A stretch of 64,000 nucleotides of DNA from an uncultured Bifidobacteriaceae bacterium. GTDB taxonomy: Bacteria > Bacteroidota > Bacteroidia > Cytophagales > UBA9547. Every line of letters begins with the position of its first letter. The stretch's first letter is position 1. Below the pieces are notes generated by a model. The model saw only the letters and a list, made by a program, of their open reading frames with translations. It had not been told where the DNA came from and searched no databases. A program made the position numbers and the translations under genes. Below are positions 46,184-64,000 of this stretch, one piece after another. The stretch is taken from positions 4,836 through 68,835 of the forward strand of contig CAZNHL010000009.1 of assembly GCA_964572965.1 (NCBI GenBank), given 5' to 3'.

Positions 46184-46190
46184 ATACTAG

Positions 46191-46454: not shown

Positions 46455-46730
46455 ATGACAACTCAAAAATTTGCCTGTCCGTGCTGTGGCTACAAGACAT
46501 TCACAGAAGAAGCCCACGGTACTTATGATATTTGTGAGGTTTGTTACTGGGAAGACGACCCTAACCAGTTCGCAGATCCCGACGATGAAGATGGTGCAAA
46601 CAGGGTTTCATTGAGACAAGCACAAAAGAACTTTGCCGAGTTTGGAGCCTGCGAAAAAGAAATGGTTGCCAACGTAAGAAAACCCCATGCCGATGAAATG
46701 AGGGATAAGGATTGGAAGCCATTGGTATAA
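46455..46730 (+). CDS. CPCC-family cysteine-rich protein
   Basis: FACPCCGYKT, YDICEVCYWEDD and GAN.VSL.QAQKNF form the Cys_rich_CPCC pattern. Confidence 0.85.
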   Translation: MTTQKFACPCCGYKTFTEEAHGTYDICEVCYWEDDPNQFADPDDEDGANRVSLRQAQKNFAEFGACEKEMVANVRKPHADEMRDKDWKPLV

Positions 46731-46761
46731 ATTCTGAGATTTACCTGTTTTTACAAGCCTT

Positions 46762-47436
46762 CTAAAAAATGGGCCTTATGAAGACAATCTGTATAATCAC
46801 CCATATCACAAGGCATATACCACCAAATATCATCATCTGTTTACCTAGCTCTCTGTCTCTCACAGAAAAAGCATTCACCAATTCTCCATTGGGCATTGTT
46901 TTCTTATGAGAAGACAGATGCCAGCCTATCATAAAGCCTAATATTCCTCCAAATAAAGAAGCAATATAGCCAGCGTATATCCAGGCTATTGGAAGTGTCT
47001 CTTGTTTTGACAAATCTGTTATTCTTTGCTTTCTGAGTAAGGCAACTAAGTCTCCATTTACTTCCTTGCCCCTTTCTTTCAATAGTTTTTGTGCAAGCAG
47101 AAAATCGAAGTGACCCCACTCATCGCGCTTCACAATTATTTCAAGTAACTCCTCATCAGTAAAATCAAATAGGTAATAGCTACGATCTATGTTTTCAAGT
47201 TGAGTCTTTGTGTTTTCCTGTAGCAACTGGTCAACCTTCAAAAAATCATCTTTCTGTAGTTTAACCCTGAATTCTCTCGACAATTCACTACTCCCAAAAG
47301 TATTGCCAAGCCCGATCGCTGTGGAATCTTCATCCAATAAATATTCTATATTATTTTCTTCGAGAAACGCCGTAAGCTCTGCCGCAGCCATGCGGTCATT
47401 GAATTTCTGAAAAGTAAGAAAGCGTTCTGTTGACAT
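46762..47436 (-). CDS. Membrane-anchored hypothetical protein with DUF2007-like N-terminal domain
   Basis: N-terminal F...AAAELT.FLE.NNI.Y and ..V.L...D...V.QLL resemble the putative signal-transducing (DUF2007) domain; two C-terminal TM helices. Confidence 0.65.
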   Translation of the reverse strand: MSTERFLTFQKFNDRMAAAELTAFLEENNIEYLLDEDSTAIGLGNTFGSSELSREFRVKLQKDDFLKVDQLLQENTKTQLENIDRSYYLFDFTDEELLEIIVKRDEWGHFDFLLAQKLLKERGKEVNGDLVALLRKQRITDLSKQETLPIAWIYAGYIASLFGGILGFMIGWHLSSHKKTMPNGELVNAFSVRDRELGKQMMIFGGICLVIWVIIQIVFIRPIF

Positions 47437-47465
47437 ATCGATTATACTTTAAAATCTCTTAACTA

Positions 47466-48923
47466 TTATTCACTTAACCAGCTCGATTTCTTAGCCAAAG
47501 TAACAACACCAATGTTGTACGCATAAATGGCCGCCGGAACAAAAGTGACATTTAAACCATCTATTGTTTTGTTACCCGGTTGATCTATTGTTGTCACCAC
47601 TGAAGCATTAAAGTTATTTGCTTTACAGAAATGAACCAAACTATTCAATTCATTCGGTTTATCGAAATAACGGTTAGTCCATTTTACTTCCACGCTCCAT
47701 TGCGGTTTGAAAAGCTTACTATCTACCAGTACAATATCAACTTCCCCTTCAGAGCGACCCATTTTCCAACGTGCATACTTCAGGTCCAGGTTTTCTCTGT
47801 GCATCCATTGTGAAAAAATTGCTGTTTCCACCATATTTCCGGTTTCCGGATCAGTTTCCTGAATCGGTGAAAATAAAGCTGTTCTCAGCGACGGATTAGT
47901 GAGATAGACTTTGAAACTGGTAATGCGTTTAAACTTTTTAGCATTGTCATCTATTTTGTGTATGACTTTGATTAAGAAAGCCGCTTCAAGATATTCCAGG
48001 TATTTTTTGATGATATCACCTTTAATACCACTATCCGTTGCCAGTTTTTCAAAAGAAAACTCATTACCGGTATTGTAAGCCAGGTAACTGAAAAAACTAT
48101 TGAGCTCCTGTACATCTTTAATTCCATACAGACTCGGCAAATCTCTCAGCAATACTTTATCCACAATATCGCTTTTTACATAACGTCCCATATCGCTTTG
48201 AATCTTTTCAGAGAAAACGACTTCCGGATAACCCCCGAAATTGAGATACTGAAAAAACTCTTTGTTAAATGCCTTATGATCGTGTGTAGTGAAAAACGGC
48301 ACTTCCTTGTTATTATAAACGATAGATTTTGACTGGACTAAGTGACTCAAACCTTTCAGGTGTATGTATTCATGAAAAGTAAGTGGAGGCAACATAAAAT
48401 CTGTGAACCGCCCTGCACCACTTTCAGAACTTTGCAAACGCAATGCCGCAGCTGCAGAACCGGAAACAATAAACTTAGTTTTAGGATACATATCTACCAA
48501 CACTTTAAGGTGACGCTCCCAGTCTTTCATGTATTGAATCTCATCAAAGAAAACAAAGCAGCCTTCCAGATTTTCCAGTTTTACAGCTTCCTTACCTAAC
48601 AAAAGAATCTCTTCCAAACCCAGGTGCATATAAATCGGATTATCGATTCCGATAAAGAAGATCTTCTGAGGTGGTACACCTTCAGTTATCAGCTCCTGAA
48701 TGGCATGAAACATCATCACAGTTTTGCCCACACGGCGCGGCCCCATCAACACGACCGCTCTTTTAACTTCTGTTTCTTTTACAAATGGATAAAACAAGTC
48801 AAAATAGAGACGTTTTGACATTTCGCGATAGACCTGCTGTACCTCGCCGGTTAGCCACCAGGGGTTTTCGTATTGCAAACGCTCTATCCGTTTGGCTGTT
48901 GGAATAACATGATTGAAATCCAT
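47466..48923 (-). CDS. AAA+ ATPase (AAA_14) with central wHTH and C-terminal DUF4143/PD-(D/E)XK-like domain
   Basis: Walker A GPRRVGKT, Walker B VFFDEIQ, VSGSA, YL.FGGYPE, G.MVET and EVDIV...SVEVKW. Confidence 0.9.
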   Translation of the reverse strand: MDFNHVIPTAKRIERLQYENPWWLTGEVQQVYREMSKRLYFDLFYPFVKETEVKRAVVLMGPRRVGKTVMMFHAIQELITEGVPPQKIFFIGIDNPIYMHLGLEEILLLGKEAVKLENLEGCFVFFDEIQYMKDWERHLKVLVDMYPKTKFIVSGSAAAALRLQSSESGAGRFTDFMLPPLTFHEYIHLKGLSHLVQSKSIVYNNKEVPFFTTHDHKAFNKEFFQYLNFGGYPEVVFSEKIQSDMGRYVKSDIVDKVLLRDLPSLYGIKDVQELNSFFSYLAYNTGNEFSFEKLATDSGIKGDIIKKYLEYLEAAFLIKVIHKIDDNAKKFKRITSFKVYLTNPSLRTALFSPIQETDPETGNMVETAIFSQWMHRENLDLKYARWKMGRSEGEVDIVLVDSKLFKPQWSVEVKWTNRYFDKPNELNSLVHFCKANNFNASVVTTIDQPGNKTIDGLNVTFVPAAIYAYNIGVVTLAKKSSWLSE

Positions 48924-48931
48924 AAATAAGT

Positions 48932-49034
48932 TTATTTATACATAAATGTAAAAATAAGCATGAAAAAAAAGTATTATTTTGACAAAAATGTAAAAATAAG
49001 GTTATTTTGGTGATATTTTCTGCTTATTTGTACA
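48932..49034. repeat. Operator-like half-sites TGTA(A/C/T)AAATAA upstream of the AAA ATPase
   Basis: Inverted copy 48932-48943, direct copies 48946 and 48988 (AAATGTAAAAATAAG twice, 42 bp apart), inverted copy 49024-49034. Confidence 0.65.
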
Positions 49035-49124
49035 ATAAAGTATATCACCAAGGCTTAATTTTCCAACTGTACTTTCAGGTAATTACTAGGCTTTTGATAA
49101 AACAATATCAACAGCTTGTTTTTA

Positions 49125-49182
49125 TAAAAAATGTCTAAAAAATGTCTAAAAAATGTCTAAAAAATCAGTGCTTAGACATTTT
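49125..49182. repeat. (TAAAAAATGTC)x3 tandem repeat plus an inverted copy inside the 3' end of the neighbouring gene
   Basis: Exact 11-mers at 49125, 49136 and 49147; TTAGACATTTT at 49172-49182 encodes KMSK on the minus strand. Confidence 0.85.
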
Positions 49183-50823
49183 CCATATCTTACCTTCGGG
49201 GTATATAAGACCCTTCATTCTAAGTTTTTGGAGATTGTTTTTTATTTTATTGCTTTTTTGAGCCGGATCTAATACATCTGGAAGTTTATCTAAAAGTACT
49301 TTTTCAAAATCTTCTCTTTTACCTTCCTTAAACTTTTTCAGATAATCCAGAATAATCTTCTGACAATACCCATCATCAATACCTCGCTGTTTTATATAAT
49401 CGGCCTTGTCACCGGTTACTCTGGCTACCGTAGCTGAAATATGAAAGTTTGGTTTTCTTCCTTCTATTAAGCTCTTTGCTTTTAGTTGATTAATTTCATC
49501 ATTATTTAAGCTTTTGGACTTGGAAACTTTATCCAGAGCGATAATATCTATCAAACTAAGGTCTGGTATAGCTGCTACTTTTCTGGCATAGTTAATATCC
49601 ACTACTTTACCTGTCACGGTTAACTTTACTGTATTGGGCGAAAATTCGTAATCGGGTAAAGGAAAAAATTTCTTGCGCTGAATATTAAACATCCTTTTAA
49701 TACCACTGCCAATAGCATCAATCATATTCAGATTAATCATTGCTTCTACTAAAAACGGATTGCGGTATGTAGGTTCTGGTGCATCGGAAATAACTACTTC
49801 CTCCACACTTGCCGGAATAAACTTTCCTGAGTTGATAAATACCAGTTTACCATCTTCATGTTCAACTACATTTATTTTACCCCCAAGTGTATAATCCTGA
49901 TGCGCAATACAGTTGTTTAAAGCTTCTCTTACTATATATGGATCATATTGATCTACTTCCTCAGGAAATAAACTACCGTCTGTAATATAGCGATACTTCA
50001 GGTTTCTGATTTTTTTATATACTTCTTCTGTATTTAATAATAACGGACAGGTAAAATGCTGGTAGTCTTTCTCTAGGTTATCGCTATCTCGAAGAATCCA
50101 TGAAACTTTTGCTGTAGAGGGGTTAATAAAGTGTTCTGATTCTGACTTGCCCAACAACAAAATAGCAGTGCGGGTAATTTTCCCTTTAATACACACTTTT
50201 GATTTATTCAGAAAAGTGATATCGTCCCATTGGTCAATTTCACTCACCAAATGGCTGTTTTTCTTTTTATATGACTCACGGGCTTTATGAATGGCTTCTG
50301 AAGACAAATCGTCAAATGTTGCATCGTCAATAATTGCGGCGCTCCAATCTTCTCCTTTTGTTTGTTCACGAATACGCTCTACTTCTTCAAGATTCAGGGC
50401 ATTCAACTCTTCACCGTCACGGCCATAATAATGTCCCTTCCAGGAAATGGGAATGCCTTTTGGTGCCGCAGGGATTTCAAATAATACAACTCTGCCGTTT
50501 GGTGTATTTGTCTCGTAAATTTCTATAAAAGTAATTCTGCCAGTGGTATGGTTTGCCAGCTCTGCCTTAAGACTGTCTAAATCATTATGATGAACTCTAA
50601 ATTGAGAGCCTACGATACTTTTGTCGCTATCCTTCACTCCAAAAACCAGCCAAGCCGAGCGTTTGCCTTTTAAATTAGCTTCATTACAAAGAGCAGAAAA
50701 ATACTTCCCTAGTTTATTAGAATCAAACTGATTATTCGCTTCTTTAAACTCCACCACTTCGTTTTCATACCCTTGCGAACAAAGTGATTGCAAAATGTCT
50801 TGTATTTCTGCCGGATTTCTCAT
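49165..50823 (-). CDS. Schlafen/AlbA_2 domain + HATPase_c_4 + wHTH protein (RecG-like C-terminal architecture)
   Basis: ENEVVEFKEA, YFSALCNEAN and WLVFGVKD (AlbA_2); VREALNNCIAHQDY, RNPFL and IDAIGSGIKRM (HATPase_c_4); C-terminal wHTH. Confidence 0.9.
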   Translation of the reverse strand: MRNPAEIQDILQSLCSQGYENEVVEFKEANNQFDSNKLGKYFSALCNEANLKGKRSAWLVFGVKDSDKSIVGSQFRVHHNDLDSLKAELANHTTGRITFIEIYETNTPNGRVVLFEIPAAPKGIPISWKGHYYGRDGEELNALNLEEVERIREQTKGEDWSAAIIDDATFDDLSSEAIHKARESYKKKNSHLVSEIDQWDDITFLNKSKVCIKGKITRTAILLLGKSESEHFINPSTAKVSWILRDSDNLEKDYQHFTCPLLLNTEEVYKKIRNLKYRYITDGSLFPEEVDQYDPYIVREALNNCIAHQDYTLGGKINVVEHEDGKLVFINSGKFIPASVEEVVISDAPEPTYRNPFLVEAMINLNMIDAIGSGIKRMFNIQRKKFFPLPDYEFSPNTVKLTVTGKVVDINYARKVAAIPDLSLIDIIALDKVSKSKSLNNDEINQLKAKSLIEGRKPNFHISATVARVTGDKADYIKQRGIDDGYCQKIILDYLKKFKEGKREDFEKVLLDKLPDVLDPAQKSNKIKNNLQKLRMKGLIYPEGKIWKMSKH

Positions 50824-50921
50824 GAGCCCATTGCTACTGTTTTTATTCTTACACCGTAGTTAAAGTTAAGCTTATTTATGGTTGCTGTATCTATCGTGTC
50901 AGGGTGTCAGGCATGATTTTA

Positions 50922-51251
50922 TTAATAGTTGTTACTCTGATCTCTATATTTTTCAACAAACTCATTCGCTTCTCCTAGGTTTTCTGGATATTTAGCATAG
51001 GACGAGTATACTTTACAGCCTCTAATTATTTCCATTTTTTCATAAACATGATCATAGTCGAAACCATTAGCTACTAAAAACCTAACTACTTCCCATTTCT
51101 GAGTTTCTGTTTTTTTAGGTGGTCGAAACCTGTGAGAAAGAAATACCATTGGCTTTCCACAATCAGGACAATTTGCAACTCGTCTATTATTGTAATCCGT
51201 TCCCTGACTAAACGATTTTCTACAGTCTAGGCAAACTACTTTATTACCCAT
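50922..51251 (-). CDS. Zinc-ribbon hypothetical protein (109 aa)
   Basis: VCLDCRKSF...CPDCGKPM..L.HRFRPPKK...KW. Confidence 0.72.
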   Translation of the reverse strand: MGNKVVCLDCRKSFSQGTDYNNRRVANCPDCGKPMVFLSHRFRPPKKTETQKWEVVRFLVANGFDYDHVYEKMEIIRGCKVYSSYAKYPENLGEANEFVEKYRDQSNNY

Positions 51252-51254
51252 GTT

Positions 51255-51467
51255 TTACTTCAACTTATTAGGATTCAATAACTCCCTTATATCCACATTT
51301 AAGACCTCTGCAATCTGAAGTAAAGTCTCCAATGATGGTTGAGAGTCATTGGTACACCAACGAGAAATTGTAGCAGTATTCTTTCCTAGCTTAGTTGCCA
51401 GCCACTTGTTTGTTCTTTCCTGTTCGGCCAGTACAACCTTTATTCTATTTATCGATGTCTTTGACAT
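51255..51467 (-). CDS. XRE-family HTH transcriptional regulator
   Basis: NRIKVVLAEQ.RTNKWLA.KLGK..ATISRWCTN.SQPSLETL..IA..L.V is the typical Bacteroidota Cro/XRE pattern. Start ATG 51467. Confidence 0.9.
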   Translation of the reverse strand: MSKTSINRIKVVLAEQERTNKWLATKLGKNTATISRWCTNDSQPSLETLLQIAEVLNVDIRELLNPNKLK

Positions 51468-51472
51468 AAAAA

Positions 51473-51703
51473 TCACTTTTCATTCTCAAAAAACCTACCT
51501 GTTGAAATTCCCAACCCTTCTGCCAAAAGCATAATAGTATTCAAGCTGGTATTGATTACCCCTGTTTCTATCCTCGCTATCTGACTAAGTGATATTCCCG
51601 TCCTGTGTGCTAACTCTTCCTGAGTAACACCTAGGGATTTACGGCATACTGCAAACTGTTTGCCGAATGCCTTTATCTTCTCTTTATTGACTGTTTTTCT
51701 CAC
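51473..51703 (-). CDS. XRE-family HTH transcriptional regulator
   Basis: FG......RK.LG.TQEELA.RTGIS.SQIARIE.G..N.SL.TI..LA..L; GTG start. Confidence 0.85.
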   Translation of the reverse strand: MRKTVNKEKIKAFGKQFAVCRKSLGVTQEELAHRTGISLSQIARIETGVINTSLNTIMLLAEGLGISTGRFFENEK

Positions 51704-51734
51704 AGGTCAAAGGTTAATAAAAAGTATCTATTCC

Positions 51735-51872
51735 TTAAACTTCAAACCTAAAAAGCAAATCAGGTTCTATGCCCATTCCTTTGCTTAGTGCATAAATAGT
51801 TGAAATTGTTGGGCTTCGTTCTCCTCTTTCCAGTCTGCTGATTTGTTTGGCATCTAATACTGTTACCTTCAA
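51735..51872 (-). pseudogene. 5'-truncated XRE HTH fragment, not in the ORF track
   Basis: Translates to LKVTVLDAKQISRLERGERSPTISTIYALSKGMGIEPDLLFRFEV*, the C-terminal half of an XRE domain. An in-frame TAG lies 9 codons upstream of this fragment. Confidence 0.7.
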
Positions 51873-51976
51873 ATACTTTGATAACCTGAAAGTAATCTAT
51901 TTCTCAAATACTACCAACTGGTAGTGGTCAAAGTGTTTCAGCTATAATATCTTTCCTCCATAGAAATTATTATACT

Positions 51977-52365
51977 ATGGAAAAACACAAACCAGCTATC
52001 AGCATTATGCTGGTGGAGCGTGACGAACTGGCCTTGCAGGTATTAGTATGGCTTTTTGAGAAAAGCGGCTATCTCGGCGAGCTGCTGTTGTTTACAGATC
52101 CGGACAAAGCTGCGGAATACCTCAACACACATAAGCTGCCTGACCTGATTATCGCTGACTTTTCCTGAACAAAATGGAGGAATTTAGCTTTCTGCTGCGG
52201 GCACAGGAACTCGCTGCTTCGTGGAACAAGCCAATGGCTATTGTTATTCTGGGAGATTTCGCTGGTGATATACGGGAAGTATCTACTGTAATTGCTGATA
52301 TCCATTTTGTGCTAAAACCGCTTACGCTTGATGTGGCTGAGAGGTGGATTGGGTTGCTACAGTAA
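51977..52365 (+). pseudogene. Stand-alone receiver (CheY-like) domain split by a 1-nt frameshift
   Basis: ORF 51977-52168 ends ...PDLIIADFS*. Adding one T to the T4 run at 52160-52163 gives DLIIADFFLNKMEEF... in frame with ORF 52174-52365, which ends FVLKPLT (conserved Lys-Pro). Confidence 0.75.
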
Positions 52366-52390
52366 GCGGCTTGCAAATCCTATGATCTGG

Positions 52391-52443
52391 CTTCGAGATT
52401 ATAAATCCCGAAGAGCAATTTTGCAGCAGCAGCTGCAAAATTG
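52391..52443. terminator. Two adjacent hairpins between the convergent receiver pseudogene and Fic-3
   Basis: CTTCGAGATT-ATA-AATCCCGAAG and the perfect CAATTTTGCAGC-AGCA-GCTGCAAAATTG. Confidence 0.62.
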
Positions 52444-52503
52444 AACTAGACTAGAGTTGTGTTACAAACATGTATCTCGTCAGTCCTCAAACTAGTTTGG
52501 TTT

Positions 52504-53577
52504 CTATCTTTTAGACAACAATTCAAACAAGCGTGTATTGATATAATAGTTTCCGGTTCCTAGTTTGGCTTTTTGCAAAAGGCCGTCTTCTGCCAGTTTG
52601 TTCAAATAGGAAGCTGCTGTTATTCTGGAAACTCCCAGATCATTCATCAGGAATTCTATTTTTGTATAAGGGTGTTTGAATAAATTATTCAACAAATCCT
52701 GGCTGTAAAACTTATAGTTTTCCCGTAACTCATACTTATAGGTTTGCATCAGTTTTTTTATCTGGCCGATAAGCTCAATCGTTTCTTTAGAAGTTTCTTC
52801 TATGCCTTTGATCATAAAGAGTAGCCATTCTTCCCAATTTTTCTTATCACGCACTTCTTGAAGCAGTCTGTAATAATCTGCTTTGTGTTTGATAATATAG
52901 CTACTCAAATAGAGGATCGGTAAGTTTTGCAGGTTTTCGAGGATAAGATAGAGAATATTCACAATCCGGCCAGTTCTGCCGTTTCCGTCATAAAATGGAT
53001 GAATACTTTCAAACTGATAATGGATAACAGCCATTTTAACGAGTGCGTCATATTCACTGAATTCCTTGTTATTGATAAAGGACTCCAGGTTGGCCATCAG
53101 ACTATCGATCTCATCATAACTTTGAGGAGGTGTATAAACAACTTCACCGGTTTGTGCATTTTTCAGGTTTGTGCCGGGCAGTTTTCTGAAGCCTGCTTTG
53201 TTTCGTTCCAATTCTTCCTGAATAATGAGAATGGTTTTATTGGTAATCAGCCCGCTTGCCGATGTCAGTTCAAAACCCTTCTTTAAGGCTGATATATAAT
53301 TCTGCACTTCTTTAGCATTTAATGAATTGAGTGCTTCAAAATTCAACTCTGACTTATACAGATCGTCATGTGTCGTAATGATATTTTCAATAGCTGAACT
53401 GTCTTTTGCTTCCTGTAAACCAAGGGTATTGATAAGAATATGCTGGTTCGGAATTGTAGAGGCTACTCCCTTCAATTCTGCCAAAGCAGCATGCGCAGCT
53501 GGCAGGCTCTTTAAAACCTTGATAGTCTCGAGATCATGCTTTACAGGTAACGGTTCTAATTTCCAGTTTGTCTCCAT
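52504..53577 (-). CDS. Fic family protein 3 (class II, C-terminal wHTH)
   Basis: QEAKDSSAIENI, HYQFESIHPFYDGNGRTGR and wHTH (LGVSRITAASYLNKLAEDGLL). True start ATG 53577 (METNW); the ORF-track extension reads through the repeat array. Confidence 0.95.
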   Translation of the reverse strand: METNWKLEPLPVKHDLETIKVLKSLPAAHAALAELKGVASTIPNQHILINTLGLQEAKDSSAIENIITTHDDLYKSELNFEALNSLNAKEVQNYISALKKGFELTSASGLITNKTILIIQEELERNKAGFRKLPGTNLKNAQTGEVVYTPPQSYDEIDSLMANLESFINNKEFSEYDALVKMAVIHYQFESIHPFYDGNGRTGRIVNILYLILENLQNLPILYLSSYIIKHKADYYRLLQEVRDKKNWEEWLLFMIKGIEETSKETIELIGQIKKLMQTYKYELRENYKFYSQDLLNNLFKHPYTKIEFLMNDLGVSRITAASYLNKLAEDGLLQKAKLGTGNYYINTRLFELLSKR

Positions 53578-53582
53578 AGTAC

Positions 53583-53736
53583 TATGTAAAGATTTTGCTG
53601 TTTTCTTTACATAGCAAAACCTATATGTAAAGAAAATCAATTTTTCTTTACATATGCAAAGTGTTATGTAAAGATTTTGCCGTTTTCTTTACATAGCAAA
53701 CCTCATATGTAAAGAAAAGTTAAAAATCTTTACAGA
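53583..53736. repeat. Four palindromic units TATGTAAAGA-N11-TCTTTACATA at an exact 41-bp period
   Basis: Left arms at 53583, 53624, 53665 and 53706; units 1+2 and 3+4 form an 82-bp duplication. The last right arm is TCTTTACAGA. Confidence 0.95.
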
Positions 53737-54093
53737 TACCTATCTCTCACTTTTTTATCAAAAACACTCACCTTAAAAATTCTATTTTCTACCGCTTCAA
53801 ATCAGTCTTTCACCGAAGTCCTGTTTCTACTGAAAAAATGCTGTTTTAAATTTTAAAAAAATTAAGAAGATGCATAATCAAAAGGCCGGAACTAATCCTA
53901 CTCAGAAGAAGCCAATCCGTAAAAAAAATGGTGTTGAACTAACGGCAAAGCGGGTAGTTAAAACGGGTACACACCTGCCCGTGATGCTGCAAGTCGGTGT
54001 TTTCGGGTTATTTTCTCCGCTAGGCTGGTAGTGCGTTGCTATTCTATGAAGTAATTTGTTAATTGGCTTATTCCGGTTATAAATTCTACATAG

Positions 54094-55158
54094 ATGAAAG
54101 GTGCATCTCTCACGGCTTTGGTGCTGGTGTTTGTTTTGGCTGTTCTTGGTTTAACAGTCGCTTTTACTTTTTTACACCCTTCAAAAAAGCTTTTCGGAAA
54201 AATAACCGTTGATGGCAGTAAAACTCTAGTGGTATCTGAGATTTCAGCATCCAGAAAATCCCGTTTCCTAAGTGTTGCCGATTCTTTGTTTTTCCGCTTC
54301 GATTCTCTGGCTAAAGTTTCAAAACCAATAATGGGTTATCGTTTTTGCATTGTGGGAAACTTTGACAGCGACCAGATTGCTGATACATTGGTTGAATGTT
54401 ATACTGATTCTTTGCTAAAAACGGAGGTAGCAAAATACGATGAAGTTTATGAATATGCAGATGTTTTGTACCGTGCCGGATACTACAATTACCAGTCATT
54501 TATGAAAGTAAAAGGTAAGTCAGACATTGCCCATTTACCGGGTGCTTTTCTTGGTTTTAGTTATGTGGAAAACTGTGGTGACCTGAACGGAGATCGGCGC
54601 GACGAGGTGTTTTGTGTCAAAAACCATGGTGGCTATTCAAATGTAACAACGGGGTATTTTTATACACTGACCGATACCGGCTGGGCTGAGCTAAACAGGA
54701 CGGGTGTTTGGTTATGGATGTTTCCGCCGACACCAGGTGCCGCTATGGTTAGTTCTATGTTTGGCGCTTTTGAGTTTGGTTATACTGGCTCAGACAGTAT
54801 GGATATAGCATTGGAAAAACAATTAAAGGAATTTCAGTATGTAGTGCGGAAGGGAAAATGTGCGGTGGAATTTGAATGTATGAGTTTCCTTGAAATGGAC
54901 GAAGCGCTGGATGAAGATGACTATTACAAAAAGCGGTTTAAGAAAACTAAAACAGGCAACGAAATATTCCTGACAGACCAATATTATAAAGCATTGTCCT
55001 ACCCTGCTTCTGTACTGAATATGACCGGTGACGATAAAGGAAATTATATTTTACCTATCAATGACGGAGCTTCGTCTTTGCTGGTAAGGGTAAATACCTG
55101 CTCACCCGAATCACCGTTCAGGTTAAGGAAGAGTTTTAATAAAGTTTGGCTGCAATAA
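54094..55158 (+). CDS. Membrane-anchored hypothetical protein with FG-GAP/DxDxDG-like loops
   Basis: N-terminal TM helix; GNFDSDQIADTL and GDLNGDRRDEV resemble Ca-binding beta-propeller loops. Confidence 0.62.
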   Translation: MKGASLTALVLVFVLAVLGLTVAFTFLHPSKKLFGKITVDGSKTLVVSEISASRKSRFLSVADSLFFRFDSLAKVSKPIMGYRFCIVGNFDSDQIADTLVECYTDSLLKTEVAKYDEVYEYADVLYRAGYYNYQSFMKVKGKSDIAHLPGAFLGFSYVENCGDLNGDRRDEVFCVKNHGGYSNVTTGYFYTLTDTGWAELNRTGVWLWMFPPTPGAAMVSSMFGAFEFGYTGSDSMDIALEKQLKEFQYVVRKGKCAVEFECMSFLEMDEALDEDDYYKKRFKKTKTGNEIFLTDQYYKALSYPASVLNMTGDDKGNYILPINDGASSLLVRVNTCSPESPFRLRKSFNKVWLQ

Positions 55159-55173
55159 CTCCGCGATAAACTA

Positions 55174-55902
55174 TCAGTTATAATGGAGCTCCATTGTCCT
55201 TCCTCTAGACATGTATTTGATTTTGTCGAGCCGGAACCCTAAGGCTAGTGCAAAAACATTGGCGCTGCTACTCGGATAATTGTCGATAGCTAAATTTCCG
55301 GCAAAGGTTGTGTTGCTACTTTTTACAAGGTTATCGGGATACAGAATGCACTTTATATAGCTGTTTCTTAATGTGTATTGTAAAAAGACTGATGTATGAA
55401 AAACATCTACTCTGTCTGAGAACCATTCTGATTTCTTGGTTTTAGAATCATCCTGCCAGATTTTCTCTTTGTAGTTCATAAAGATATTCAGCTCTGCTCC
55501 TCCTGAAAGGTATGATTGCCGGCTAAGTTTTCCGAGTTTAACAGCCAGAGGAATCACAAGTGCATAAATGCGCTTTTTTGTTTTTAGCTCCGTGCCTGCT
55601 GTGGCACCTGGTGCAAAATAAACCGGTCTGTCAATAAAACCAATATTGCGGACACCCAGCCCGGTATATAAACCAAAGGATTTTGAAAGGTTAAAATGAA
55701 ACTCATGCCCGGCATTAATCACAGGGGAAAATCTGATTTTATCGGTAATAGGTTCTCCATTCTGATATGTATTTGAACCTGAAAACAGCATTTCCAGATA
55801 AGAATACTGCTCGAATTTTTTCTGACTGGCGTTAGCTGCTGTCTGTGAAAACCCTGCTTTACAAATAAATAGTAAACAAACAATAATGCTGTATTTCTTC
55901 AT
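55174..55902 (-). CDS. Outer membrane beta-barrel (porin-like) protein
   Basis: Signal peptide; G.YTGLG.RNIG, alternating beta strands, IPLA.K.G, and C-terminal ALGFRL. Confidence 0.75.
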   Translation of the reverse strand: MKKYSIIVCLLFICKAGFSQTAANASQKKFEQYSYLEMLFSGSNTYQNGEPITDKIRFSPVINAGHEFHFNLSKSFGLYTGLGVRNIGFIDRPVYFAPGATAGTELKTKKRIYALVIPLAVKLGKLSRQSYLSGGAELNIFMNYKEKIWQDDSKTKKSEWFSDRVDVFHTSVFLQYTLRNSYIKCILYPDNLVKSSNTTFAGNLAIDNYPSSSANVFALALGFRLDKIKYMSRGRTMELHYN

Positions 55903-56105
55903 AAGTAGTTATTACCCGACATTTAACGAAGCCAAAAGGCTGAATATTATTGTATGAAATACACACCCTGTGAACCGAAAAATCAGCCCCCAACTTTAGT
56001 TATCCGTTTTTCTGTGGTAATTCGGACGGACAGTTTCGGCAAGCACAATTACCACGGCCATACATAAAATTTTTGAAATATGAGACGCGATAAATCGCGT
56101 CTCCT

Positions 56106-56543
56106 CTATATAGTTTTTCTTTTTGTGTATTTTTCGTAATCGGGCATTGCTATCTGATATTTTTCTTTGAAAAAAGGTGATGTAATAAGAAAGTCGGCTG
56201 TGGAGCGGCTGCATGCCAATGGTATATTCCAGACAGCTGCCAGTCTTAGTAATGCTTTAATATCCGGATCGTGCGGAAGGGCTTCCATCGGATCCCAGAA
56301 GAAAATGACGATATCTATCTTTCCTTCGGCGATCATGGCGCCAATTTGCTGATCGCCTCCAAGCGGCCCGCTCAGAAGTTTATTTACCGGAAAGTTCAGG
56401 GCTTTTTCGATCAGGCTGCCGGTGGTTCCTGTTGCGTGCAGTTCATGGTTAGTTAATGTTGATTCATTACGTATTGCCCAGTCAACCAGCTCCTGCTTTT
56501 TATTGTCATGCGCAATAAGCGCTACTCTTTTTCTTTCTCTCAT
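56106..56543 (-). CDS. mgsA: Methylglyoxal synthase
   Basis: [26 protein letters not shown] and FFWDP....[17 protein letters not shown]. Confidence 0.97.
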
Positions 56544-56698
56544 CTGAAATTGATAATGGATTCACAACAGTGTTGTGTCAAAATAAACACTATTTTTAGA
56601 GAAATGGCATTTGTGTGTCTGTTATTTTTAAGCCTGCCAGCCAAATTTAGAATATTAACCCTACGATTCTTACGGAAGCTCTAATCTGACATGTGTAT

Positions 56699-56733
56699 AA
56701 AAGGCCCCGCAAAAAATATTTACGAGGCCCTTT
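56699..56733 (-). terminator. Probable terminator after the alkene reductase
   Basis: Imperfect AAAAGGCCCCG...CGAGGCCCTTT stem; T run on the minus strand. Confidence 0.5.
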
Positions 56734-56750
56734 GGGTTTATCCACATTAC

Positions 56751-57830
56751 TTATTGATAAGTCGGATAGTCGGTATACCCTTCAGCACCAGTCGTATAGA
56801 AAAGATCCATTTTCAAATCCTTGCTTAGGGGCCAGTTGTTTTCAAAACGTGCCGGCAAATCGGGATTGTTGATAAACGGTTTCCCGAATGCTACAAGGTC
56901 TCCTTTTGATGCTGCTAAATCTACTTCTGCAGTTTCTTTATTGTAGCCTCCACTCAAAATATAAAGCCCTTTGAATTTTGTACGGATCAGGGATTTCACC
57001 TTAGGAGATACTGCTGGTGCACCCATAGCAGAATGATCAACCACATGTACATAGACGATACCTATTTTATTCAGCTCTTCGGCCAGATAAGCGTAGGTTT
57101 CATCTACCTGATTATATGGCGGCATGTCGCTGGCAATTCCATAAGGAGAAACACGGATTCCAACTTTGTCTTTTCCGATTGCTGCAGCTGTTTCAGTAAC
57201 TACTTCTAAAACAAAACGGGCCCTGTTTTCAATACTTCCTCCATAGTTGTCAGTCCGGACATTGGTTACCGGATTCAGGAATTGCTCCAGTAAATAGCCG
57301 TTTGCGCTATGTAATTCTACTCCGTCAAAACCTGCTGCAACAGCATTCTTTGCTGCCTTTACAAATTCAGCTTTCGTCTTTTCAATGTCCTCGGCTGTCA
57401 TTGCTTTAGGAACAGGATATGGTTTCATCCCATCTTTATCGGTATGTATTTCTCCAGCTGCTTTTACAGCCGATGGTGCCAGTACTTCTGCACCTTCCGG
57501 GAGGTTAAGTGGGTGTCCGATTCTACCTGTATGCATGAGCTGTACAAAAATACGAGAGCTTTGAGCATGTACTGCTTCTGTTATTTTTTTCCAGCCATTT
57601 ATCTGTTCTTCTGAAAATATACCAGGGATACGTGCATAGCCCAAGCCGTTTGGTGATGGCGATGTCCCCTCTGTAATAATTAAACCGGCGCCGGACCGCT
57701 GGCCATAATAGATAGCTCCAAGTTCGCCCGGAATGTTACCGATGCTTCTTGAGCGGGTCAGTGGTGACATGACTATTCTGTTTTTCAGAGTAATGTTACC
57801 CAGTTGTGCATGTGAAAAAAGTATGGACAT
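56751..57830 (-). CDS. Alkene reductase, Old Yellow Enzyme family (NemA-like)
   Basis: LKNRIVMSPLTRSR, GLIITEGT, QLMHTGR, GFDGVELHSANGYLLEQFL, RTDNYGGSIENRARF and VAFGKPFINNPDL. Confidence 0.93.
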   Translation of the reverse strand: MSILFSHAQLGNITLKNRIVMSPLTRSRSIGNIPGELGAIYYGQRSGAGLIITEGTSPSPNGLGYARIPGIFSEEQINGWKKITEAVHAQSSRIFVQLMHTGRIGHPLNLPEGAEVLAPSAVKAAGEIHTDKDGMKPYPVPKAMTAEDIEKTKAEFVKAAKNAVAAGFDGVELHSANGYLLEQFLNPVTNVRTDNYGGSIENRARFVLEVVTETAAAIGKDKVGIRVSPYGIASDMPPYNQVDETYAYLAEELNKIGIVYVHVVDHSAMGAPAVSPKVKSLIRTKFKGLYILSGGYNKETAEVDLAASKGDLVAFGKPFINNPDLPARFENNWPLSKDLKMDLFYTTGAEGYTDYPTYQ

Positions 57831-58029
57831 ATGATTTTGGTTTTAATTTCGCTGTATAGAAGATACATGTTTTCACAACAAATTTCCAGTTGCCGGAATA
57901 TTAAAATTTCATCGCTGATCTGGTCTATTCCACAGGTTTAATACCACCGGAAAGGTATAATCTCACTCGCGGAATAATGTTGCTTCGGAATAGGACTCTA
58001 TGTCTAAAACAATTGTTTTGAAAAGAAAC

Positions 58030-58066
58030 AAAAAGGGGAAGTTCTTTTATCGGAACCTCCCTTTTT
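58030..58066 (-). terminator. Probable terminator after glycogen synthase
   Basis: AAAAAGGGGAAGTTC...GAACCTCCCTTTTT imperfect stem with T tails. Confidence 0.6.
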
Positions 58067-58087
58067 CTGAATATTAAAAAAAACAGT

Positions 58088-59905
58088 CTAACTGAATTTG
58101 CGTTCAATTGCAAGTTCATGGGCTTTGTCATAATATTCCCTCAGATTTGACCAGTCAAAATGTTCTGAAGAACTTTCAACCCTGTTTCTCTGATTGATAC
58201 GCTCTCTGCGCGACTGCACAATAAAATCAAAAAGAATATTTGCCAGCTGCTGTGAAGATTCCTCGTAACTACGGTGATAACGGTTCACAACATAAATTCC
58301 TTTTTCTTCCGGATTTTCTACTTTTTTGATTACATAATCACCAAAACCTGAAAGGTCACTTGTTACTGAAGGCACACCACTGGCCATTGCTTCCAAAGGT
58401 GTATATCCCCATGGCTCATAATAACTTGGAAAAATTCCCAAATGGCAACCACGCACAAACTGTCCATATTCCATACCGAATAGTGGATTGGTTGGTGAAA
58501 TGAAATCTGGGTGATAAACAATTTTCACTTTATCATGTGCATTGTTTACCAGATTTGCAGTACGCAAGAAGCCCAATACTTCGTCATGGTCTGAATGCAC
58601 TAATGTATGGGTTGCAACTTTTGGAAGGTTCCATGTTTTCCAGGACTGCAACGTACGGCGTAAACGCAAACGCCAGTAATCATCTACAAAAAGATTGAGA
58701 TCAGGTAAGGTTTGTGCATGGCTTGATGCCGCAGCTTTGAAGAGCTTCTCTCCTACCTGTTTTTCAATGTTGTCACAAGTGGCACGAATTTCTTCCATTA
58801 CCGCACGTGATTGTAATACTTCAGGATCAATAGAGTGATATGGTTGTTTTGTAACGATAAACATTACCACATTCATGTCAATGTTATTCACCTGCAACAT
58901 GTGGTTTAATCGCGCCAGAGATTCCAGCGTCATATCAAAACCTTTATTTCTGTATTCGAAACGGCCTGAGGTAAAAAAGTATAATGTTTTATCCAGATCA
59001 AAAGAATAGCTCTGGAAGAAGTGTCCCATTACAAATTCATGGATCTGATCTTTGTACTCTTTATGCAATACCTGATGTTCATGCATTGCAGTGAAACGCT
59101 CGATGTTTAAACCGTTTGGTAAAATGAGATCAGGTTTTCTGCCGAGCAAAGCTTCGCACTCATGACCGGTTACTTCACTTACTGTTGTAAATACTTCAGA
59201 ACCATGTGCCGCTGCTCTTTCAATTCTTACAGCAGTTTCAATATTGAAATGGCGGGCTTCGTTGAGCCAGTAATAATTATATAAATTGTCATAGAAGTTT
59301 CCATCGTTCATTGCCAGGTACCTTCCCAGCAAGGTGGCATGGGTTGTAAAGACCGTAGACACGGGTACACCTTCATATCTGAGCTCAGGTATAGCTGTGC
59401 CTACCATCCACTCGTGGAAGTGAGCTACGAGCTTCTTTTCAGATTTTTCTTCTTCATTAATGTCTGCAACGATTCTGATAAATTCTTTTACGAGATAACC
59501 GAAAGCAATTACCTGTGTCTGCAATTCGTCAGCATGTTCGCATGGAATATCATGACGGTCCCACAGGTTGAACTTGATTTCGCCCATTTTCCAGTAAACA
59601 CTGAAAGGATTGATCAGTACAACTAATGGACGACCGGATACAAGCCAGTTACCAAACTGCACTTCTATTCCCATTTCGCGCATACGCAAAACAGCTTTTC
59701 CGTAAGTGCATGAATAATCGTTGATAGGTTCAAACTCAGCAGCTGCCTTACTCTGAAAGTATGGGCCGATCAGGCAATAGTTGCCGTCCCACTTCTTTTT
59801 CATTGAAGGAGCTTTTGAGCGTATCACGGTATAAATACCTCCAACCTGGTTACAAACTTCCCAGGCAACCTCCATCAACATGCTTTCTTGAATTTGATCG
59901 TTCAT
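58088..59905 (-). CDS. Glycogen synthase, GT3 (eukaryote-like) family
   Basis: EVAWEVCNQVGGIYTVIRSK, HFHEW, FTTHATLLGR, SGRFEY.NKG and GIFPSYYEPWGYTPLE (E-X7-E). Confidence 0.93.
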   Translation of the reverse strand: MNDQIQESMLMEVAWEVCNQVGGIYTVIRSKAPSMKKKWDGNYCLIGPYFQSKAAAEFEPINDYSCTYGKAVLRMREMGIEVQFGNWLVSGRPLVVLINPFSVYWKMGEIKFNLWDRHDIPCEHADELQTQVIAFGYLVKEFIRIVADINEEEKSEKKLVAHFHEWMVGTAIPELRYEGVPVSTVFTTHATLLGRYLAMNDGNFYDNLYNYYWLNEARHFNIETAVRIERAAAHGSEVFTTVSEVTGHECEALLGRKPDLILPNGLNIERFTAMHEHQVLHKEYKDQIHEFVMGHFFQSYSFDLDKTLYFFTSGRFEYRNKGFDMTLESLARLNHMLQVNNIDMNVVMFIVTKQPYHSIDPEVLQSRAVMEEIRATCDNIEKQVGEKLFKAAASSHAQTLPDLNLFVDDYWRLRLRRTLQSWKTWNLPKVATHTLVHSDHDEVLGFLRTANLVNNAHDKVKIVYHPDFISPTNPLFGMEYGQFVRGCHLGIFPSYYEPWGYTPLEAMASGVPSVTSDLSGFGDYVIKKVENPEEKGIYVVNRYHRSYEESSQQLANILFDFIVQSRRERINQRNRVESSSEHFDWSNLREYYDKAHELAIERKFS

Positions 59906-60141
59906 GAAAAAATCAATCTATAATTAGCCAACAATACTTAAACTTATGCCCTTATACGGTAAAAATGCCGAAGGTTTCTCTGAATTCCGCTTTTTAGTAA
60001 CAGAAAAGAGAAGCTAAATTAATTAATTTTAAATGACTATCCGCTTCTCTGAACCCTTCTTAAATTTTTCCGCAGAATTTCGCAGATTAAGGTTTAGAAT
60101 TCCATGCTAAATGGATCAGGTAAGGACAATGAAACGGATAC

Positions 60142-61968
60142 TCAATTAATTTTATCACCTCTCAATAATCTGAAGCGTTTTCTTGCTTCAACTGTATAGA
60201 TACTGGAAGGATAATTTTTTAGGAAGTTCTGATAAAGTTCCAGTGCTTTTTCTTTATTCTTCAGATTGACTTCTGCAATAAATGCCTGGTTATAGGCAGC
60301 TTCATCTGCTGTTACAGCTTGTGGATAACTACTTATCAACACCCCAAGCTTCTCATAGGCCTTATCAAAATTCCCTGATTTTCTGTAAATATCAGCAGTA
60401 GTAAGCAATATTTGAGGCATAATGATTTTGTTGCTTCTATAACGCACCTCCATCAGCTGTAACTTTTCGAGCGCTTCTGTTTGCTTATTCCGGAAAACGA
60501 GCAACTCCACTTCGGCATAATTTCTTAACGGCATTCCTGTACTATCAGCGGCAAGGTTATCCTGTATCAGCAAACTTAGTTCAATAGCATCGTTTGAAAT
60601 TTCTCTTGAAGTGGCCAGTTTCAAAACATCAAGCTGGTCTTGCGCCAGCTGAAATTCGTTCTGATAAAAATGTAATTTGGCATCTTTAAATTTAGCCTCA
60701 TGGCCTATGGTTGTTTCTACCTGGGTACGCTCCACCTGCATGTATAACAATGTGGACTCCCAAGGTTCATTTTTCAGTATATACAAATCGGCCAGGTTGA
60801 TTTTTGACTTATCCACAAGGTTCTGATCAAAACGTCCTTGTTTGATTACCTGATTCAACAACACTTCTGCTGTATCAAGTTTTTCCAAATAGAAACCATA
60901 AATTAATGCCTGCGATCTTTTTGCTTCCAGACAGTTGCCACTATTTCCTTCCTGACTGCACACAGATTCATAATCTCTGATAAGTTCACGCAGTTTCAGG
61001 TTATCCACAGGGATAGTATTTTTAACCATCTCTTCCTTGGCGTTAATCATTAAGCGCTTTGCATAAACGTTCTTGTACTCTTTTGCTACGTAATCATAAC
61101 AAAGCACTGCGTTTTCATAGTCCTTATTTTCCAAAGCAATTCTACCGAGATCCAATACTTCCTGTCCCTGCAGCTTAAATCTTTTATCAATTGCTTTTGA
61201 CTGTGTAAATGCACCGAAAAAATCTTTTTCCTGAACATATGCCCAAACCAGTAATTGGCCGTAAGATATATTATCAGGTTCTGCCTGAAGTTTTCTAAGA
61301 ATTACTTTTCTGAGCTTTGTAAGATCTTCCGGCGATTCAGCCAAATTTTGCAATTCACTTTTTACACGATCAATAGAGTTTCCATTGTCAATTGTATTCA
61401 GCAATTCATCAAGCATACTTTCGGTATTGCCTTCGAACTTATAAATGGCTGCTAATTGTGCTGCATAAGCTGCTCTGATTCCCTGCTTTTTCCTGGCCTC
61501 AATAAATAGTTGTTTAGCTATTGTAGATTTGTCGTTTTTCAAAAGGTAGTCTCCCAAATTTTCTGTAGCCTGTTGAGTTGATGAATTTTCTTTAATAACC
61601 TTTTCAATTATTTTTTGCGACTCCTCTGTTTTATCTTGTTTTTGGTAAAGATCTGCAAGGTCTATCTTATATGATGCCTCTTGTGGATAAGTCTTGACTG
61701 CCCTTTTAATTAATTTTTCGGCACCTGTTAGATCCTTTAGGGCAAATTCTGTTTTTAAGTAATTTGAATAAAAGCTTTGTAATGGCTGTTTTCCTTTTTT
61801 AGCTAATTGTTCATAAACTGCTTTTGCTTTATCAAACTCTTTGTTTTGGAAGTATTCATCACCGAGCGCAAGCTCGGAATTTTTTTGAGCAAATACGGTT
61901 ACTGAAAGCAAACATAAAAAAATCAATCCGCGTAGCGGGGGAAAATTTTTGAAAAAGATGATTCTCAT
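60142..61968 (-). CDS. Tetratricopeptide repeat protein (exported)
   Basis: Signal peptide, repeated TPR helices, C-terminal A...YQ..L..YP.SIYT.EARKRFR.LRGD. Confidence 0.85.
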   Translation of the reverse strand: MRIIFFKNFPPLRGLIFLCLLSVTVFAQKNSELALGDEYFQNKEFDKAKAVYEQLAKKGKQPLQSFYSNYLKTEFALKDLTGAEKLIKRAVKTYPQEASYKIDLADLYQKQDKTEESQKIIEKVIKENSSTQQATENLGDYLLKNDKSTIAKQLFIEARKKQGIRAAYAAQLAAIYKFEGNTESMLDELLNTIDNGNSIDRVKSELQNLAESPEDLTKLRKVILRKLQAEPDNISYGQLLVWAYVQEKDFFGAFTQSKAIDKRFKLQGQEVLDLGRIALENKDYENAVLCYDYVAKEYKNVYAKRLMINAKEEMVKNTIPVDNLKLRELIRDYESVCSQEGNSGNCLEAKRSQALIYGFYLEKLDTAEVLLNQVIKQGRFDQNLVDKSKINLADLYILKNEPWESTLLYMQVERTQVETTIGHEAKFKDAKLHFYQNEFQLAQDQLDVLKLATSREISNDAIELSLLIQDNLAADSTGMPLRNYAEVELLVFRNKQTEALEKLQLMEVRYRSNKIIMPQILLTTADIYRKSGNFDKAYEKLGVLISSYPQAVTADEAAYNQAFIAEVNLKNKEKALELYQNFLKNYPSSIYTVEARKRFRLLRGDKIN

Positions 61969-61997
61969 AGTGACGCTTCTTTTGAGGAGGAATGAGC

Positions 61998-62385
61998 TAA
62001 TAATATATATTTAATTAAATAATTAATATTATAATGTATTATGCTGTGGATACGTGGAGAACTTTTAAAATCTCCTGTTGCTTCTTAATTATGTTTATAA
62101 AGTACTGTTGATAAGTATTTATGAACGTGTTATACACAACTAAGTTATTGATTATGAGTAGTCATTTTTTTAATCCACACAAGTTAACAATTGTTTAACA
62201 AATTGGTGTGAATTCTGATTTTGTGGATTAAATGTCTTTCTGGTTGAATAACTATTAGGCTTTTCCACACCATTATTTAGCCCTTAGTTACCAACAATCA
62301 GAACCAGTTTTTATCCACATTTATCCACTTATTTATATGCCTTTATTAAGCTTAAAAGGCACCATTGTTTATATGTTGATAAGTT
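61998..62385. other. Candidate chromosomal replication origin (oriC)
   Basis: Pure A/T run 61998-62035. Exact TTWTNCACA boxes at 62130, 62261 and 62311. One-mismatch boxes at 62045, 62106, 62171, 62222, 62321 and 62374, in both orientations. No ORF in the interval. Confidence 0.72.
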
Positions 62386-62387
62386 AA

Positions 62388-64000
62388 TTAGAAAGAAAAA
62401 ACTGCATCTCTCACTTCCCAGTTCTGTTTTAACGTAATTTTCTGTTCCATATAGATGATTTCTTCCGGTAAGTATCTAGTCCGGTAATTACCATTATCGA
62501 ATTTTTTGTTTTTATTAATATCTATAATTGCTCTTAATTGATATTCACCAGGTTTTAACTGAGGGAATAAAATTGTCTTTTCTGTTGTATAGACTGTATT
62601 GATTACCTCGCCTGTTGAATTAAGTAATTCAATGAAGTAGTCTTTTTTAGAGGTCTTTATCTTCACTTCAAGTAAGGCTACATCTTCTTCTTTTGATACT
62701 TTGAAAGTACTTAATACAGCGGTAGTGCTGTCTCCCTGAGATGATATTAAGAAACCTTCAGGAAGTTTTACTATAACAGAATCTGTTGCTGTTGTGAGAG
62801 GTATTTTTACAACAGTCCTGAACTGATTAAATTTAAGATCTGATTCCTTTAATAGCATTACCTTGTTATCAAGTTTAATATAGGTAGTATCGCTCAAGTT
62901 AACTTTTGCTATTGGTTTTTCCACTACAATTTCGAGTTCTCCCGGAATGATGATAGCATCACCTGAAGAAGGCTTCACAGATTTTAAGTAAACTACTTTT
63001 TTCTTTATCTCTTTATTTTTCTCTTTTTTACCTTCATCCTCTAGTTTAAAAAGAATGTTTTTGGTTGTTTTTAACTGAGCTCCTATGGAATCTATAGCTA
63101 CAATAATCAATGGAATACTGTCTGTATAAGTTTTAGTGATATCACTGTATATTGTAACCTTTTTCTTTTCTTTATCTATAGTATAATATACTGCATCTTT
63201 TGCTTTTATTAAGATACTGTCAATTCCTTTATTGAAGCCGATTTCACAATTCCGGTTTTTGTAGTTGATACTATTTATCGCTAGAGTATCATCATTTTGT
63301 TTAACCAGACCTAGTGTTATATGTTTTGTTGAATCAGAATTGATAGGCAAGGTTTTATCAAGAAAGCCTATTTTTTCAGATCTGCTGTTGAATTCGAAGT
63401 TCTTGTTTTTATCTTCAAAGGCATATAATTCATAATTATTGCTATGAATATTCTGTATCAGGAATTCTCCACTTTCATCAGTATATGTATAATAATAGGG
63501 TTTATGCTTTTTAATATTTAAAGTATCTGATTTTTTCCAAAGGCCGACAAGGACACCTTTTACTGCTTTTGATGTATATTGATCTTTTACTTTACCATGA
63601 AGCTGTAAAGAATCTATTATAGGTCCGGTAGAAAATACAACCTGAAGGTTTTTAGGACTGTTACCTTCTGTTATGTCTTTAATGCCATTATTCATCCTCA
63701 CAATGTAGGTTGTGTTTGGCTTAAGACTGTCTTTGAACCCTATTGTTACATTATAACCGGTTGTTTTGATATCAAGGTTTTTGCCATAATAGGGTGAAAT
63801 TTGTATTTCATCTCTCAGTTTACTTGTTTCTACCTTTTCACTAAACCTCAGGTATATTTTGTTACCTTTAAAATTGGTAGTTTGATTTTTTGGAGATATA
63901 CTTTTTACCGTTGGATTTAACGTGTCTTTTGGACCTCCTTCCAATGGAGTTATATTAGCACAAGAAGTTAGTAACCTGCTTAGTGTTATGAATACAATGA
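62388..64000 (-). CDS. Ig-like (Big_5) domain lipoprotein, 5' end beyond the window edge
   Basis: Frame stays open to the window end (...LLTSCANITPLEGGPKD, lipobox LTSC), so the ORF-track start at 63944 is internal. Big_5 N-terminus (F.E.V, NTTY.V...GIKDITEGN) and C-terminal L.PGEY.LRAI.D.N.N..FD.GN. Confidence 0.8.
   Translation of the reverse strand, partial: IVFITLSRLLTSCANITPLEGGPKDTLNPTVKSISPKNQTTNFKGNKIYLRFSEKVETSKLRDEIQISPYYGKNLDIKTTGYNVTIGFKDSLKPNTTYIVRMNNGIKDITEGNSPKNLQVVFSTGPIIDSLQLHGKVKDQYTSKAVKGVLVGLWKKSDTLNIKKHKPYYYTYTDESGEFLIQNIHSNNYELYAFEDKNKNFEFNSRSEKIGFLDKTLPINSDSTKHITLGLVKQNDDTLAINSINYKNRNCEIGFNKGIDSILIKAKDAVYYTIDKEKKKVTIYSDITKTYTDSIPLIIVAIDSIGAQLKTTKNILFKLEDEGKKEKNKEIKKKVVYLKSVKPSSGDAIIIPGELEIVVEKPIAKVNLSDTTYIKLDNKVMLLKESDLKFNQFRTVVKIPLTTATDSVIVKLPEGFLISSQGDSTTAVLSTFKVSKEEDVALLEVKIKTSKKDYFIELLNSTGEVINTVYTTEKTILFPQLKPGEYQLRAIIDINKNKKFDNGNYRTRYLPEEIIYMEQKITLKQNWEVRDAVFSF

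Follow-up and report, generated by a model that had tools for sequence, protein, structure and literature searches.

A predicted DnaA-dependent chromosomal origin near mnmG and away from dnaA in an uncultured Cytophagaceae bacterium

The intergenic gap at positions 61969–62387 is very probably the single DnaA-dependent chromosomal origin of replication (predicted oriC) of this Cytophagaceae bacterium, as judged from sequence features and their conservation. Positions are those of the window, the whole 64,000 nt stretch of DNA that was analysed, which corresponds to C9:4836-68835 of a draft assembly of 168 contigs (4.45 Mb, ~39 % GC). Protein matches place the genome in the Cytophagaceae (Cytophagales, Bacteroidota). 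A dominant cluster of DnaA boxes, an adjacent A/T-rich element, a strand skew switch and a conserved place near an indicator gene, the features by which an oriC is recognized, are all present at the gap. An earlier note on this DNA had proposed a probable origin here, and that reading is supported by the box cluster, the A/T run, the skew switch of contig C9, synteny and the complete chromosome of a relative, G041.

The gap is 419 bp long with 28 % GC and lies between two genes on the minus strand. To its left is a TPR gene of 608 aa (60142–61968, minus strand; Pfam TPR_14, TPR_16, TPR_6 and YfiO), and to its right an Ig-like gene (62388–64000 within the window, minus strand; Pfam Big_5) that runs past the window end and stops at position 64022. 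No open reading frame of at least 50 aa is present within 61969–62387, and an Rfam scan of the same interval matched no RNA family. The gene-free gap of ~420 bp between TPR and Ig-like genes that the earlier note described is thereby borne out. Past the window, contig C9 continues with a SAM methyltransferase gene (Methyltransf_23), then mnmG/gidA (C9 69756-71621; GIDA profile, 548 bits), then ybeY and others. The gap is located 2.5 kb from mnmG/gidA, on the downstream side of that gene; gidA is a standard oriC indicator gene in Ori-Finder (PMC10225481 Table S2). On the right-hand side of the gap, contig C9 has 13.5 kb of sequence, coded throughout by the minus strand and head-on to a rightward fork.

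DnaA boxes were defined as 9-mers with no more than one mismatch to TTATCCACA, and the whole 4.45 Mb genome was scanned. Nine such boxes are found in the gap, spanning 62045–62382, making this the densest cluster in the genome (nine per 400 bp, as against four or fewer elsewhere and a genome-wide background of 0.29 per kb). When the window was shuffled 100 times, the observed count was not reached once. Three of the gap sites, at 62130, 62261 and 62311, match TTWTNCACA exactly, so that both counts given in the earlier note, nine box-like 9-mers and three exact TTWTNCACA, are confirmed, as is its 38 bp pure A/T stretch. The latter occupies 61998–62035 and is the candidate DNA unwinding element; no other pure A/T run of the genome is as long, and 30 nt is reached by only two runs. 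Perfect TTATCCACA boxes are concentrated in the same region: there are 35 genome-wide, of which 7 lie at 48157–62319, within 14.2 kb of the gap, and 5 lie within 2 kb of it (60320–62319).

Next to the unwinding element, on the minus strand, are two abutting tandem boxes (62045–62061): TTCTCCACG at 62061–62053, with two mismatches, and GTATCCACA at 62053–62045, with one. The proximal box is 9 nt from the A/T run, and the interval between them holds the spacer GCA and then a TAATA motif that starts a TAA/ATA triplet tract (62037–62044, minus strand). Read along the minus strand, this end of the gap is thus composed of the tandem boxes, GCA, TAATA, the 38 nt A/T run, a further 30 nt and the start of the TPR gene. 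The remaining boxes are TTATCAACA at 62106–62114 (minus strand), TTATACACA at 62130–62138 (plus), TAATCCACA at 62171–62179 (plus) and again at 62222–62230 (minus), TTTTCCACA at 62261–62269 (plus), a plus-strand tandem pair 1 nt apart at 62311–62329, made up of a perfect TTATCCACA and TTATCCACT, and a second TTATCAACA at 62374–62382 (minus), 6 nt from the stop codon of the Ig-like gene. In minus-strand order from the Ig-like to the TPR gene, the boxes are mostly of the same orientation and then mixed, the 62311–62329 pair included.

Boxes also occur in smaller numbers outside of the gap. A group of three, one of them perfect (56738), is located at 56692–56875 just downstream of an OYE-family gene, and a lone perfect box at 48157 lies inside a PDC-S01 gene; both add to the perfect-box enrichment near the origin. 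The second-best cluster of the genome, C1:171995-172175, has four boxes, one of them perfect, in a 680 bp divergent intergenic region with a gltX-like gene adjoining. Contig C1 is without a skew switch, and this cluster may be a promoter regulated by DnaA or a titration site.

Whole long contigs of this genome have a uniform skew of either ~+0.1 or ~−0.1, indicative of strong replication skew. Plain GC skew, calculated for the window and for contig C9, shows no switch at the gap; it is uninformative here because the genes on both sides of the gap are all on the minus strand. Third-codon-position (GC3) skew was therefore used instead, with every long contig of strong skew serving for its calibration. 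Measured along the leading strand, leading-strand genes give +0.152 and lagging-strand genes +0.161; GC3 skew thus reports the direction of replication and not the strand of the gene. Pooled plus-strand GC3 skew is −0.135 for C9 1-56000, +0.011 for C9 56000-66803 and +0.083 for the part right of the gap. The immediate neighbours of the gap score −0.171 (TPR gene) and +0.192 (Ig-like gene). The change in third-position composition that had been noticed by eye is therefore real. A negative-to-positive switch within C9 is 22–26 log-likelihood units better than no switch. Among contigs of at least 10 kb it is the only strong origin-type switch (gain 25.7), the next being a gain of 13.5 on a contig of six genes. 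The earlier note had held that a skew minimum elsewhere would speak against an origin at this site; the gap lies within the switch interval of C9, the only contig with a strong switch of this type.

Within this interval the change-point optimum is at ~54.1 kb of the window, before the gene starting at 54094 and 8 kb to the left of the gap, with the gap 3.5 log-likelihood units below the optimum. The displacement arises because the genes at 52.5–59.9 kb are slightly positive in skew. Switches of the opposite, terminus type (positive to negative) were also seen; the best supported is on C35 at ~30.6 kb (gain 22.5), followed by one on C38 (13.5), and the C35 site is a candidate replication terminus.

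The six genes at 52504–59905 encode a SoFic protein, two unknown proteins, an MGS-like protein, an OYE-family oxidoreductase and a glycogen synthase. Five were scored, the MGS-like ORF being too short, and their GC3 skews, from ~0 to +0.13, do not have the sign expected of the left replichore. With the glycogen synthase as a synteny anchor, no box cluster was found within 10 kb of it in 80 relatives; neither this gene nor the 7 kb stretch that contains it shares an ancestral linkage with the gap. G011, the closest of the relatives that were examined, has its glycogen synthase gene 132 kb away from the gap, with the relative orientation of the two reversed. Together, the skews and gene positions suggest that DNA next to the origin was recently inverted or translocated.

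Overlapping this stretch is a defence-type island at 43689–53640. It encodes three Fic proteins of the SoFic family, two of which are full-length (E values of 1e-110 and 3e-117), as well as a PDC-S01 AAA_14/DUF4143 ATPase and a Schlafen AlbA_2 protein with a weak match to a pAgo model. By coordinates, the proposal that a candidate defence island sits 8–19 kb from the origin holds (SoFic and PDC-S01 at 43.7–53.6 kb). Whether such an island would gain from the gene dosage of an origin-near position is a matter for speculation.

The arrangement around the gap is conserved in relatives. Within the family, an Ig-like gene and a gap with 2–8 boxes follow mnmG in all 15 genomes with enough sequence, and a TPR-type gene of ~600–650 aa comes next after the gap in most, not all, of them. 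For the order-level comparison, MnmG was used as the anchor in named genomes. The order mnmG, a gene of ~294 aa, a gene of ~550 aa, a gap with 5–13 boxes and a gene of ~600 aa is shared by Roseivirga, Cyclobacteriaceae, Lunatimonas, a Flammeovirgaceae MAG, Reichenbachiella, Runella (13 boxes), Aquirufa (9 boxes) and Emticicia, and in these named genomes the box cluster is located ~2.5 kb past the mnmG stop codon, as on C9. In total, the succession mnmG, methyltransferase gene, Ig-like gene, box-rich gap and TPR gene is represented by about 15 genomes of the family and by 13 other loci, 12 from other Cytophagales and 1 from a Chryseobacterium.

Outside of the boxes, little of the gap is alignable. 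A DNA-level search of 40 relatives with the gap gave one appreciable match (G007 C435 8610-8725; 68 % over ~100 nt), which falls within the syntenic gap of that genome, and the gap DNA was otherwise not alignable beyond the boxes in these 40 relatives. A locus search with the Ig-like protein returned only three loci, at ~30 % identity. The best-conserved part of the gap is TTATCnACA directly followed by TATCCACA (17 nt), a spacer of 3–4 nt, TAATA(ATAATAG...) and A/T-rich DNA. A loose form of this pattern (tandem boxes, spacer and TAATA-type triplets) was matched in the gaps of 20 of 29 relatives. The conserved unwinding module adjoins the TPR-gene end of the gap, and in 12 of the 13 Cytophagales gaps examined the most A/T-rich 40-mer is found at this end, just downstream of a same-oriented DnaA box.

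Skew in the relatives points to the same place. In the complete Roseivirga chromosome G041 (3.04 Mb), the arc from 2.3 Mb through 0 to 458 kb has negative GC3 skew and that from 459 kb to 2.0 Mb has positive GC3 skew. At the level of single genes the skew flips exactly at the syntenic gap (boxes 458552-458913), the flanking genes being −0.154 (TPR-like) and +0.333 (Ig-like). The dnaA gene of this chromosome, at 920.6 kb, is 462 kb from the gap and inside uniformly positive skew. Aquirufa has values of −0.271 and +0.188 across its gap. Skew is weak in G003, a member of the same family, and a broad negative-to-positive transition at 221–291 kb includes its gap at 271.4 kb; this is consistent with an origin at the gap, imprecisely placed. 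The minus-strand orientation of genes to the right of the gap is also kept in relatives whose skew switches there.

The assembly contains two full-scoring dnaA genes (525 and 509 bits), located at C132:4505-5860 and C4:89533-90948, with an identity of only 56 % to each other. In each of the 20 other family genomes with a dnaA match, a single dnaA is present. The C4 copy is 58–63 % identical to the DnaA orthologues of the family and the C132 copy 50–57 %. The latter gene is cut by the end of its 5.9 kb contig, on which the other genes (IlvE-like and a 5′-nucleotidase pair) are ordinary and single-copy; this copy may be a genuine second initiator paralogue, or else its contig is mis-binned. Neither copy is on contig C9 and no box cluster was found near either one, in agreement with the claim that this origin is not flanked by dnaA. 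Additionally, mnmG and dnaA are on different contigs in every family genome examined.

The TPR gene itself carries four perfect boxes, at 60320 (minus), 60809 (plus), 61001 (plus) and 61682 (minus), all at synonymous sites. They encode both YPQ motifs of the protein (T-TAT-CCA-CA) and both VD[KN] motifs (T-GTG-GAT-AA). Of the 89 YPQ motifs in the whole genome only 5 are written as a perfect box, and of the 494 VD[KN] motifs only 11. Against the four observed, 0.19 are expected (Poisson P ~5e-5) from an analytic calculation in which the protein sequence is fixed and the codon usage is that of the genome. The five genes neighbouring the TPR gene have no perfect boxes. TPR orthologues from some other genera show a similar excess, with 3 observed and 0.15 expected in G005 and 2 observed and 0.28 expected in G007, and some of the orthologue boxes share homologous alignment columns (137, 371 and 598-601). 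These counts suggest that DnaA sites have been selected for at synonymous codon positions in a gene next to the origin; this is a new point, albeit a minor one. A more tentative reading, and on balance a doubtful one, is that the DnaA-binding domain of the origin reaches ~1.7 kb into the TPR gene, where the boxes could constitute a selected, coding-embedded DnaA reservoir or could couple transcription of the flanking gene to initiation, as a characteristic of Cytophagaceae origins.

Three other readings of the locus can be set against an origin at the gap. That initiation takes place ~6–12 kb further left (window ~50–56 kb), with the cluster at 62 kb as an accessory DnaA-binding site, is very improbable. 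It would account for the GC3 change-point before the gene at 54094, which fits better than the gap by the 3.5 log-likelihood units given above, and could draw upon the three boxes at 56692–56875, one of them perfect, and the perfect box at 48157. However, no cluster of more than three boxes and no long A/T run is found in that stretch, which is variable DNA made up of SoFic defence genes and of genes unlinked to the gap in relatives. Furthermore, the switch in relatives is exactly at the syntenic gap, and the TPR and Ig-like flanks are opposite in skew sign.

A regulatory role for the gap, as a datA- or DARS-like titration or reactivation locus or as a DnaA-controlled promoter of the TPR gene, with the real origin lost in an assembly gap, is equally hard to sustain and is given very little weight. 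In a draft of 168 contigs an origin could in principle be missing, the four-box cluster at C1:171995 shows that DnaA sites exist outside of the origin, and, since just 30 nt separate the A/T run from the start codon of the TPR gene, the promoter of that gene must overlap the gap region. Such a locus would nevertheless not be expected to coincide with the only strong origin-type switch and the longest A/T run of the genome, nor would its counterpart in G041 be expected exactly at the skew switch, and the conserved succession of tandem boxes, spacer, triplets and A/T-rich DNA is the architecture of an origin. Some box-like matches are to be expected in a gap of 28 % GC when the box consensus is itself A/T-rich, yet an A/T-rich intergenic region with fortuitous 9-mers is effectively refuted by the box count, which was reached neither in the shuffles nor anywhere else in the genome, and by the retention of the cluster in its syntenic position, at both family and order level, in DNA that is otherwise unalignable.

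If the gap is the origin, initiation would be expected to proceed as follows. DnaA, encoded on another contig, would bind the box array, and the abutting boxes at 62045–62061 would anchor a DnaA-ATP oligomer. The oligomer could then extend over the spacer and the TAATA/ATA triplets into the 38 nt A/T run and melt it, upon which the replicative helicase would load and two forks would depart in opposite directions. The boxes of mixed orientation, together with the four perfect boxes of the TPR gene, probably raise local DnaA occupancy.

The predicted origin and the candidate terminus on C35 are thus placed in the fragmented genome of an uncultured Cytophagaceae lineage, which aids scaffolding, coverage-based estimates of growth rate and replichore-aware analyses. 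For the Cytophagales, the comparisons point to a simple rule, namely that the origin lies between the Ig-like and TPR genes, 2.5 kb downstream of mnmG, and is no neighbour of dnaA; genome coordinates based on dnaA would consequently misplace it. The 17 nt tandem box with its TAATA module may serve as a practical signature for origin finding and for the design of oriC shuttle plasmids. Current ideas on the initiation of bacterial replication are unchanged by these results.

Within the order, the oriC of Cytophaga hutchinsonii has reportedly been validated with oriC plasmids (Xu et al. 2012), and to our knowledge it is the only Cytophagales origin confirmed by autonomous replication. Predicted origins are catalogued in DoriC (PMC3531139), and, according to DoriC 5.0, an oriC-plasmid experiment with C. 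hutchinsonii ATCC 33406 agreed with the prediction from boxes and skew (DoriC 5.0, PMC3531139). The likeness to the present gap is in the kind of evidence (DnaA boxes and skew). The two genomes differ, in that 12 published primers, including those for 16S, fail here even with up to four mismatches allowed.

The end of the gap next to the TPR gene can also be compared with the basal unwinding system (BUS), which is defined by at least three 3′-NAN-5′ trios that have one or two DnaA boxes no more than 16 bp away and are followed by A/T-rich DNA (PMC8287927), and which is described for the oriC of Bacillus subtilis and for predicted origins across phyla (PMC8287927, PMC10721633). The BUS has a short GC spacer between tandem boxes and trios, and the gap resembles it in its tandem boxes, spacer of 3–4 nt, triplet-periodic tract and A/T-rich DNA. 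On the complementary strand there are six consecutive 3′-NAN-5′ triplets starting 9 nt from the proximal box, a pattern that arises easily by chance in DNA of more than 90 % A/T and that by itself is weak evidence for a BUS. In contrast to the BUS, the triplets are of the TAA/TAT type and not of the 3′-GAT-5′ consensus, and the two boxes abut in an 8 nt register.

An origin that lies close to gidA and at a distance from dnaA is a classical arrangement, best known from E. coli. Like the E. coli oriC, the gap is away from dnaA, is linked to mnmG/gidA and has boxes in both orientations. In E. coli the unwinding element follows R1 as 5′-TTATCCACA-3′, and TTATT-type single-strand contacts are known at this origin. 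Here too the unwinding element is at one end of the gap with the proximal box oriented as R1, and on the strand reading TGTGGATA a TTATTA beside the proximal box resembles the TTATT-type contacts. The marks of the enterobacterial type, multiple GATC sites and direct flanking by gidA and mioC, are absent. No GATC occurs within 61969–62387, so control of the Dam/SeqA type is not indicated, and no 13-mer repeats were seen in the gap. Whereas the E. coli order is gidA/mnmG, oriC, mioC, the flanks here are the TPR and Ig-like genes, and mnmG is 2.5 kb off behind two genes and transcribed towards the origin, not away from it. The datA and DARS loci of E. coli are likewise DnaA-box clusters away from dnaA; they differ from the gap in being without an unwinding element and off the skew switch, whereas the gap has a candidate element of this kind and coincides with the switch. 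An origin near mnmG and away from dnaA is a known kind of element, and the predicted oriC at 61969–62387 is an ordinary member of it.
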